32,012 bases of DNA from Escherichia coli (lineage in GTDB: Bacteria > Pseudomonadota > Gammaproteobacteria > Enterobacterales > Enterobacteriaceae). Both the position numbers and the translations under genes were made by a program. The notes beneath the pieces are model-generated. The model did no database searches. It saw only the letters and a list, made by a program, of their open reading frames with translations, and was not told the origin of the DNA. The DNA is taken from the NCBI RefSeq assembly GCF_003334385.1, contig NZ_QOWN01000052.1; one strand, 5' to 3'. Each line of letters begins with the position of its first letter. The first letter of the stretch is position 1. This document shows positions 31,934 to 32,012 of this stretch, piece after piece.

Positions 31934-32012
31934 CCCATAAGCGCTAACTTAAGGGTTGAACCATCTGAAGAATGCGACGCCTCGGTGCCTCGTTAAGACG
32001 ATGCCTCGCGTT
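31934..32012 (-). mobile_element. insL: IS186-type insertion sequence, transposase-distal end (terminal repeat 31936..31958), body continues beyond the window
   Basis: CATAAGCGCTAACTTAAGGGTTG at 31936..31958 is the exact inverted copy of 53..75 (25 bp identical including the adjacent CC). The interior at 31959..32012 is open on the minus strand in two frames and has no transposase start, so this is the opposite end to the one at 1..75. Confidence 0.75.

Follow-up and report, generated by a model that had tools for sequence, protein, structure and literature searches.

The window analysed here is a stretch of 32012 bp and makes up the entire short-read WGS contig QOWN01000052.1 of Escherichia coli assembly GCA_003334385.1; a literature search for a paper on the assembly accession (QOWN..., GCA_003334385) found none. 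From left to right it carries the 3' part of gudD, then barA, rlmD, relA, mazEFG, pyrG, eno, ygcG, queE, the CRISPR-II array and the genes from ygcE to queD, followed by cysJIH, sok, hok and, directly after hok, IS186 (Table 1). These 31.9 kb are colinear with strain EC416 and three SNPs apart from it; no rearrangement of the segment is visible within the window, which keeps the order found in its relatives. One SNP, at 8076, falls in codon 31 of mazF and gives MazF A31G, a protein whose exact sequence occurs on only 8 contigs in a collection of 15 billion proteins. It was this protein that led to QOWN01000052.1, which carries mazF at the coordinates it has in the window and is identical to the window over the 18.3 kb compared. 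The second, at 25918, changes residue 168 of YgcN (T in the window, A in EC416), and the third, at 14561, is intergenic between queE and the CRISPR array. PGAP places a CRISPR feature at the equivalent position in EC416, and the array has been described (PMC3903273). A REP-like palindrome lies at 1156-1191, between gudD and barA; a k=31 Logan contig of a sibling sample breaks exactly there.

At each edge the window runs into an insertion sequence. A repeat search returns a perfect inverted pair, 53-77 and 31934-31958 (25 nt, 100% complementary), which is the longest in the window, the remaining pairs being 18-24 nt long at 81-89%. The original prediction had picked out this pair and had taken it for the edges of two directly repeated IS186 copies with the transposase on the minus strand; it was right about both. 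The terminal repeat of IS186 proper is 23 bp long (CATAAGCGCTAACTTAAGGGTTG) and occupies 53-75 and 31936-31958, while the extra GG/CC of the 25-nt pair is contributed by the two G-rich target sites, 2 nt that lie outside the element. The left edge reads ...CAACCCTTAAGTTAGCGCTTATG|GGGTAAACGTGG... and the right edge ...GCGGGGGTAAAACC|CATAAGCGCTAACTTAAGGGTTGAACC....

Window positions 1-75 are the last 75 nt of the complete 1339-bp IS186 of EC416, and positions 31936-32012 its first 77 nt, both at 100% identity and in the same orientation; the two edges are thus opposite ends of one kind of element, with the transposase start at one and the non-coding tail at the other, as is characteristic of IS186. 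Beyond the 23-bp repeat a further 52 nt on the left and 54 nt on the right match these two different ends perfectly, which disposes of the case, allowed for at the outset, that they come from unrelated elements. In EC416 the transposase of the element, 370 aa long, belongs to the IS4 family (NF033592 at 135 bits, cut-off 115); the copy found at the right-hand junction in relatives is 1339 bp with a 370-aa ORF, and is 99.2% identical over 388 nt to the copy of a K-12 strain. The 75 and 77 nt that are visible here show no difference from IS186 (IS4 family; ‘IS4-like element IS421 family’ in PGAP; the insL copies of K-12), and the perfect 23-bp terminal repeats, as well as the G/C-run targets with 10-bp duplications in relatives, are those of IS186. 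Each copy is presumably full length (1.34 kb).

Table 1. Features of the 32012-bp window, in order along the contig
Feature	Position	Strand	Remarks
IS186 IRL end (transposase start)	1..75	-	23-bp repeat at 53-75; insL ATG at 20, reading leftwards, 6 codons visible; element runs past the left contig end
Predicted right-hand copy of the 10-bp target duplication GGGTAAACGT in gudD	76..85	.	other copy would lie outside the contig
gudD (glucarate dehydratase), 3' two-thirds, without the first ~128 codons	84..1031	+	cut by IS186
CRISPR-II (CRISPR2.2-2.3) array	14669..15063	+	7 repeats, 6 spacers; between queE (ygcF) and ygcE
sok antitoxin region of the chromosomal hok/sok beside cysH (Rfam RF01794)	31620..31777	+	113 bits, E 6e-27
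hok toxin gene, 50 aa, Hok/Gef family	31762..31914	+	NCBIfam HokA and Hok, both below curated cut-offs (57.7 against 89 bits; 41 against 73 bits)
Left half of the hok terminator hairpin GCGGGGGTAAAACCCCGC, the IS186 target	31922..31935	+	empty site in APEC O78
IS186 IRR end (distal to transposase start)	31936..32012	-	23-bp repeat at 31936-31958 plus 54 nt of interior; element runs past the right contig end

As the window is a whole short-read contig, both of its edges are places where the assembler broke inside a multicopy repeat, and a repeat at each edge is what short-read assembly is expected to produce. The segment had been described beforehand as bracketed by IS copies: IS186 does stand at both edges, but the bracketing is largely that of a contig broken at repeats, and contig ends inside IS elements ought not to be read as structural bracketing. 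Both visible flanks are runs of five Gs entered in the same register; the second flank of each copy lies beyond the contig.

The hok terminator as an IS186 target

The right-hand copy lies in the terminator hairpin of hok (GCGGGGGTAAAACCCCGC; G5-TAAAA-C4), between cysH with its adjoining hok/sok and the cas locus. The gene at this place is labelled ‘Hok/Gef family protein’ by PGAP in relatives. In APEC O78 the site is empty: the hairpin is intact and is followed by cas3. Positions 31926-31935 of the window (GGGTAAAACC) correspond to the left-hand one of the two 10-bp repeats that flank the IS in relatives, a duplication that was verified in TW10722 and HSP425. TW10722 carries IS186 at the same site in the opposite orientation, flanked by the same 10 bp and with cas3 intact.

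The site is heavily used. IS186 occupies it, in one orientation or the other, in 943 of 5426 complete E. coli genomes; by derivation, about 598 of these have the junction and orientation of the window and about 345 the opposite orientation. The same position and the same 10-bp duplication in both orientations imply at least two independent insertions at a single hotspot. The copy at the right edge is an old and widely inherited one.

Analogous insertions lie at other hok loci. At hokC (gef) and hokE of K-12, IS186 also lies just past the hok reading frame, in the 3' fold-back or terminator region, and the hokC-IS186 (hokC/mokC) and hokE-IS186 junctions align with that of the window over its full length at 90-92% identity; IS186 thus follows several hok paralogues in the same register. 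According to PMC3562002, the IS186 after hokC is believed to break up this fold-back structure. The hok of the window is nevertheless a different paralogue from those two: it adjoins cysH, and in K-12 no hok is annotated between cysH and cas3. A weak match to Rfam ctRNA_p42d at 31513-31555 (24.9 bits against a gathering threshold of 50) was taken as chance; it lies just past the cysH stop, where GGGGGCG and a T-run look like the cysH terminator.

The junction in gudD

At the left edge the end of IS186 abuts GGGTAAACGT, at about codon 128 of the 446 codons of gudD. The intact site, as found in EC416, is CATCTGGGGGTAAACGTGG (the target is also given as GGGGGTAAACGTGG), and the element stands in the same register to the run of five Gs as at the two verified sites, GGGTAAAACC and GGGTTTTTCC. 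The IS186-gudD junction occurs in 0 of 5426 complete E. coli genomes. With the MazF variant of the same contig confined to 8 contigs, this marks the left copy as a recent, clone-specific insertion. The gudD fragment that remains is probably inactive.

The 5' part of gudD would be expected to the left of this copy, behind a 10-bp duplication. On that expectation the far side should join it to the IRR end as ...CATCTGGGGGTAAACGT|CATAAGCGC..., and a simple insertion with a 10-bp duplication would read ...CAGCATCTGGGGGTAAACGT|CATAAGCGCTAACTTAAGGGTTGAACC.... Exact look-ups of the peptides expected from a fusion of gudD' with IS186 (assuming 7-14 bp duplicated, with partial forms for k=31 ends) returned nothing specific: a 133-aa form that did match represents natural partial gudD genes at contig ends, finishing ...GTGGCATC. 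These look-ups are uninformative about the far-side junction, since at NCBI the gudD fragment on the contig itself has no listed product, probably owing to its annotation as a pseudogene.

The truncated GudD of 315 aa was also tried as a marker of the insertion and rejected: it occurs on 216 contigs, and the places that were read show a frameshift, from five Gs to four, with no IS. The frameshift leads to a TAA stop and leaves the same 315-aa downstream ORF (for example in E. coli 1827-70 and HVH 91). In one relative locus the run at the window-equivalent positions 74-78 is G4, and three more show the same split of gudD into 129/117-aa and 315-aa parts. With gudD split by frameshift elsewhere and by IS186 here, the G5 site is one that inactivates the gene by two routes. 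In RM10410 (NZ_CP042350.1), a close relative, IS186 has inserted elsewhere near gudD, in the 3' end of gudX, where GTACCTGATCC is duplicated; 18-21 places in that genome match IS186-containing queries, which points to an expansion of IS186 there.

IS186 and the cas genes of related strains

The junction at the right edge leads, in other genomes, into one of two neighbourhoods. In 333 of 5426 complete genomes, IS186 has the orientation of the window, the right-hand 10-bp duplication is present and the cas3/casA side is kept; the near-identical relatives 160-11H1 and 602354 are of this kind, and 602354 matches the junction exactly. In 268 of 5426, IS186 is followed by GGGTTTTTCCCC / GGGTTTTTCCCCACCGTTCAGG, then by a short, leaderless remnant of CRISPR2.1 and iap; E. 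coli C, EC416, LR-33 and MB06232 are examples. By derivation, some 265 genomes are deleted forms without cas3-cas2, the leader and part of CRISPR2.1. The four closest relatives by score include three deleted strains (EC416, LR-33, MB06232) and one that keeps cas (160-11H1).

How the second arrangement arises from the first can be followed in HSP425 (NZ_CM136999.1, 2057-2064 kb), where the order is hok-[IS186, GGGTAAAACC]-cas3-casA'-cas2-CRISPR-[IS186, GGGTTTTTCC]-CRISPR-iap. The second IS186 lies inside the spacer AGTTAAGAGGGGGTTTTTCCCCACCGTTCAGG; both copies have the same orientation, and each has its 10-bp duplication. In the deleted genomes the left flank of a first copy of the HSP425 type is joined exactly to the right flank of the second. 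The spacer-side left junction of IS186 is kept in only 3 of 5426 complete genomes. NZ_OZ547038.1 and NZ_CM184348.1 (ES4) also have direct copies both in the hok terminator and in a CRISPR2.1 spacer, again with a 10-bp duplication for each copy. HSP425 has in addition an internal casA'-cas2 deletion.

Much of this was anticipated by Almendros et al. (2014, mBio, PMC3903273), who placed IS186 at the IG2-IG3 boundary beside hok/sok, noted its preference for GC-rich sites, and described how recombination of one IS element with an equivalent one takes out leader L1, cas-E1 and a portion of CRISPR2.1 (their case G); hok/sok, according to the same paper, is absent from cas-E2 strains. The right edge of the window is the hok/sok-IS186 junction described there in arrangements D-G. 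The forms with two IS copies, AH1 and AH2, were listed in that paper as hypothetical, and HSP425, NZ_OZ547038.1 and NZ_CM184348.1 look like this intermediate. Both the presence of IS186 between hok and cas and the removal of type I-E cas by IS elements in E. coli were thus already in print, and a further IS186 insertion in gudD is routine strain-level variation; the finding matters little. It adds a little in that the two-IS186 intermediate, only postulated in 2014, can now be seen in three complete genomes.

For the strain itself, a junction that is common to cas-retaining (333) and cas-deleted (~265) genomes means that the window cannot show loss of cas. The deleted form would continue from the IRL end of the right copy into GGGTTTTTCCCCACCGTTCAGG-CRISPR-iap, and the chance that such a CRISPR2.1 remnant with iap lies beyond the copy is about even or a little better; the retained form would continue from the IRL end into GGGTAAAACCCCGCGTACTG-cas3, for which the chance is about even or a little worse. 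The original prediction had put the IS where cas genes would be expected, judging from K-12. In other E. coli cas3 does begin there, after cysH and hok/sok; K-12, with no annotated hok between cysH and cas3, is a poor reference for synteny. The further suggestion that the IS might explain an array without cas genes falls away: the array is CRISPR-II, which is adjacent to cas in no E. coli, K-12 included, and is unrelated to the IS186 copies, and the junction fits both cas states. A simple insertion with intact cas3 after IS186 and a normal duplication, named beforehand as the arrangement that would tell against any rearrangement, exists in the 333 complete genomes just described.

Two observations were made in passing. 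In many genomes, B strains among them (BL21 at ~569.7 kb), the 25 nt flanking an IS186 are ~94% like the flank in the CRISPR spacer, with a G-run followed by a T-run; they mark a further insertion site with a target of similar kind. In 160-11H1 (NZ_AP031375.1, 1077456-1080746) a 3291-bp ORF labelled ‘casA’ stands right after IS186; its length is close to that of cas3 and a part of casA together, which points to a fusion of the two genes or to an annotation error.

Two copies, one copy or a rearrangement

The account that fits best, and is very probably correct, is that the contig ends in two independent IS186 copies, one ancestral and one new, where the assembler broke. The strain belongs to a lineage that includes E. 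coli C and B. On this account, the assembly broke off at two copies in the chromosome, in each of which the transposase reads on the minus strand. The older of them, on the right, sits in the hok/sok terminator, a documented IS186 hotspot between cysH and the cas operon of type I-E. Some lineages acquired another IS186 in the CRISPR2.1 spacer GGGGGTTTTTCCCC, and homologous recombination of that copy with the first, to which it is a direct repeat, took out cas3-cas2 together with the leader and the repeats nearest to it. The copy on the left would be a recent arrival, specific to this clone, in gudD (about codon 128), where the target GGGGGTAAAC resembles that of hok, and would have inactivated glucarate dehydratase.

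Other arrangements of the same ends deserve consideration. Taken together, it is unlikely either that the gudD copy has already recombined with the hok copy and the relA-mazEFG-pyrG-eno-cysJIH block is thereby tandemly duplicated or amplified, or that the left junction belongs to a larger IS186 rearrangement. The second of these supposes that the left junction is the scar of an inversion, a translocation or an adjacent deletion mediated by IS186, in which case the DNA to its left would not be the 5' part of gudD. The far side of the junction is outside the contig, related strains carry IS186 at 2-22 places per genome, and in ~265 genomes recombination of this sort has cost the hok copy its own duplication; against this, the register at the G5 target is canonical, although that shows only that transposition made the junction, and related complete genomes have no rearrangement here. 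Such a rearrangement is accordingly given a small probability.

It is a little less probable still that both edges are the ends of one and the same copy, the 31.9-kb segment and a single IS186 forming the unit of a tandem duplication or amplification, or an excised circle, that unequal crossing-over of the gudD copy with the hok copy would have produced. Reading rightwards from 32012 through one IS186 does lead exactly into window position 1, and an assembly graph cannot tell one joining copy from two flanking copies; recombination between IS186 copies demonstrably occurs at the neighbouring cas locus. The supposition nevertheless still needs a prior insertion of IS186 in gudD, and thus adds a step while replacing nothing. 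A pure circle, moreover, could not replicate and would coexist with an intact gudD, and the contig would then not have been carried 75 nt into the IS. That the 25-nt inverted match is mere chance, or joins the ends of unrelated elements, is scarcely credible: only the shortness of the visible sequence speaks for it, while by calculation only ~5e-7 perfect inverted pairs of 25 nt are expected by chance in 32 kb, the 52 and 54 nt beyond the repeat match IS186 ends perfectly, and hundreds of genomes have a full IS186 at the right junction.

With two separate copies as the preferred reading, there remains the question of what such a pair can do. It resembles a composite transposon, or an IS-flanked amplifiable unit, in that two like IS copies flank a 31.9-kb block of genes. 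It differs in that the hok IS186 is ancestral at its site and common to ~598 genomes, and in that nothing indicates any past movement or amplification of the unit; a composite transposon was rejected, the cargo being core chromosome in its native order, colinear with EC416 and three SNPs apart. The original prediction had also supposed that recombination between the copies might delete, duplicate or circularize the interval. Direct IS copies can indeed recombine, as they have at the neighbouring cas locus, but there is no sign of such an event here. The genes eno and pyrG are essential (Keio collection). Deletion of the 31.9-kb interval removes both and should be lethal, leaving duplication as the only plausible outcome, and direct repeats of 1.34 kb could support a RecA-dependent duplication of the interval.
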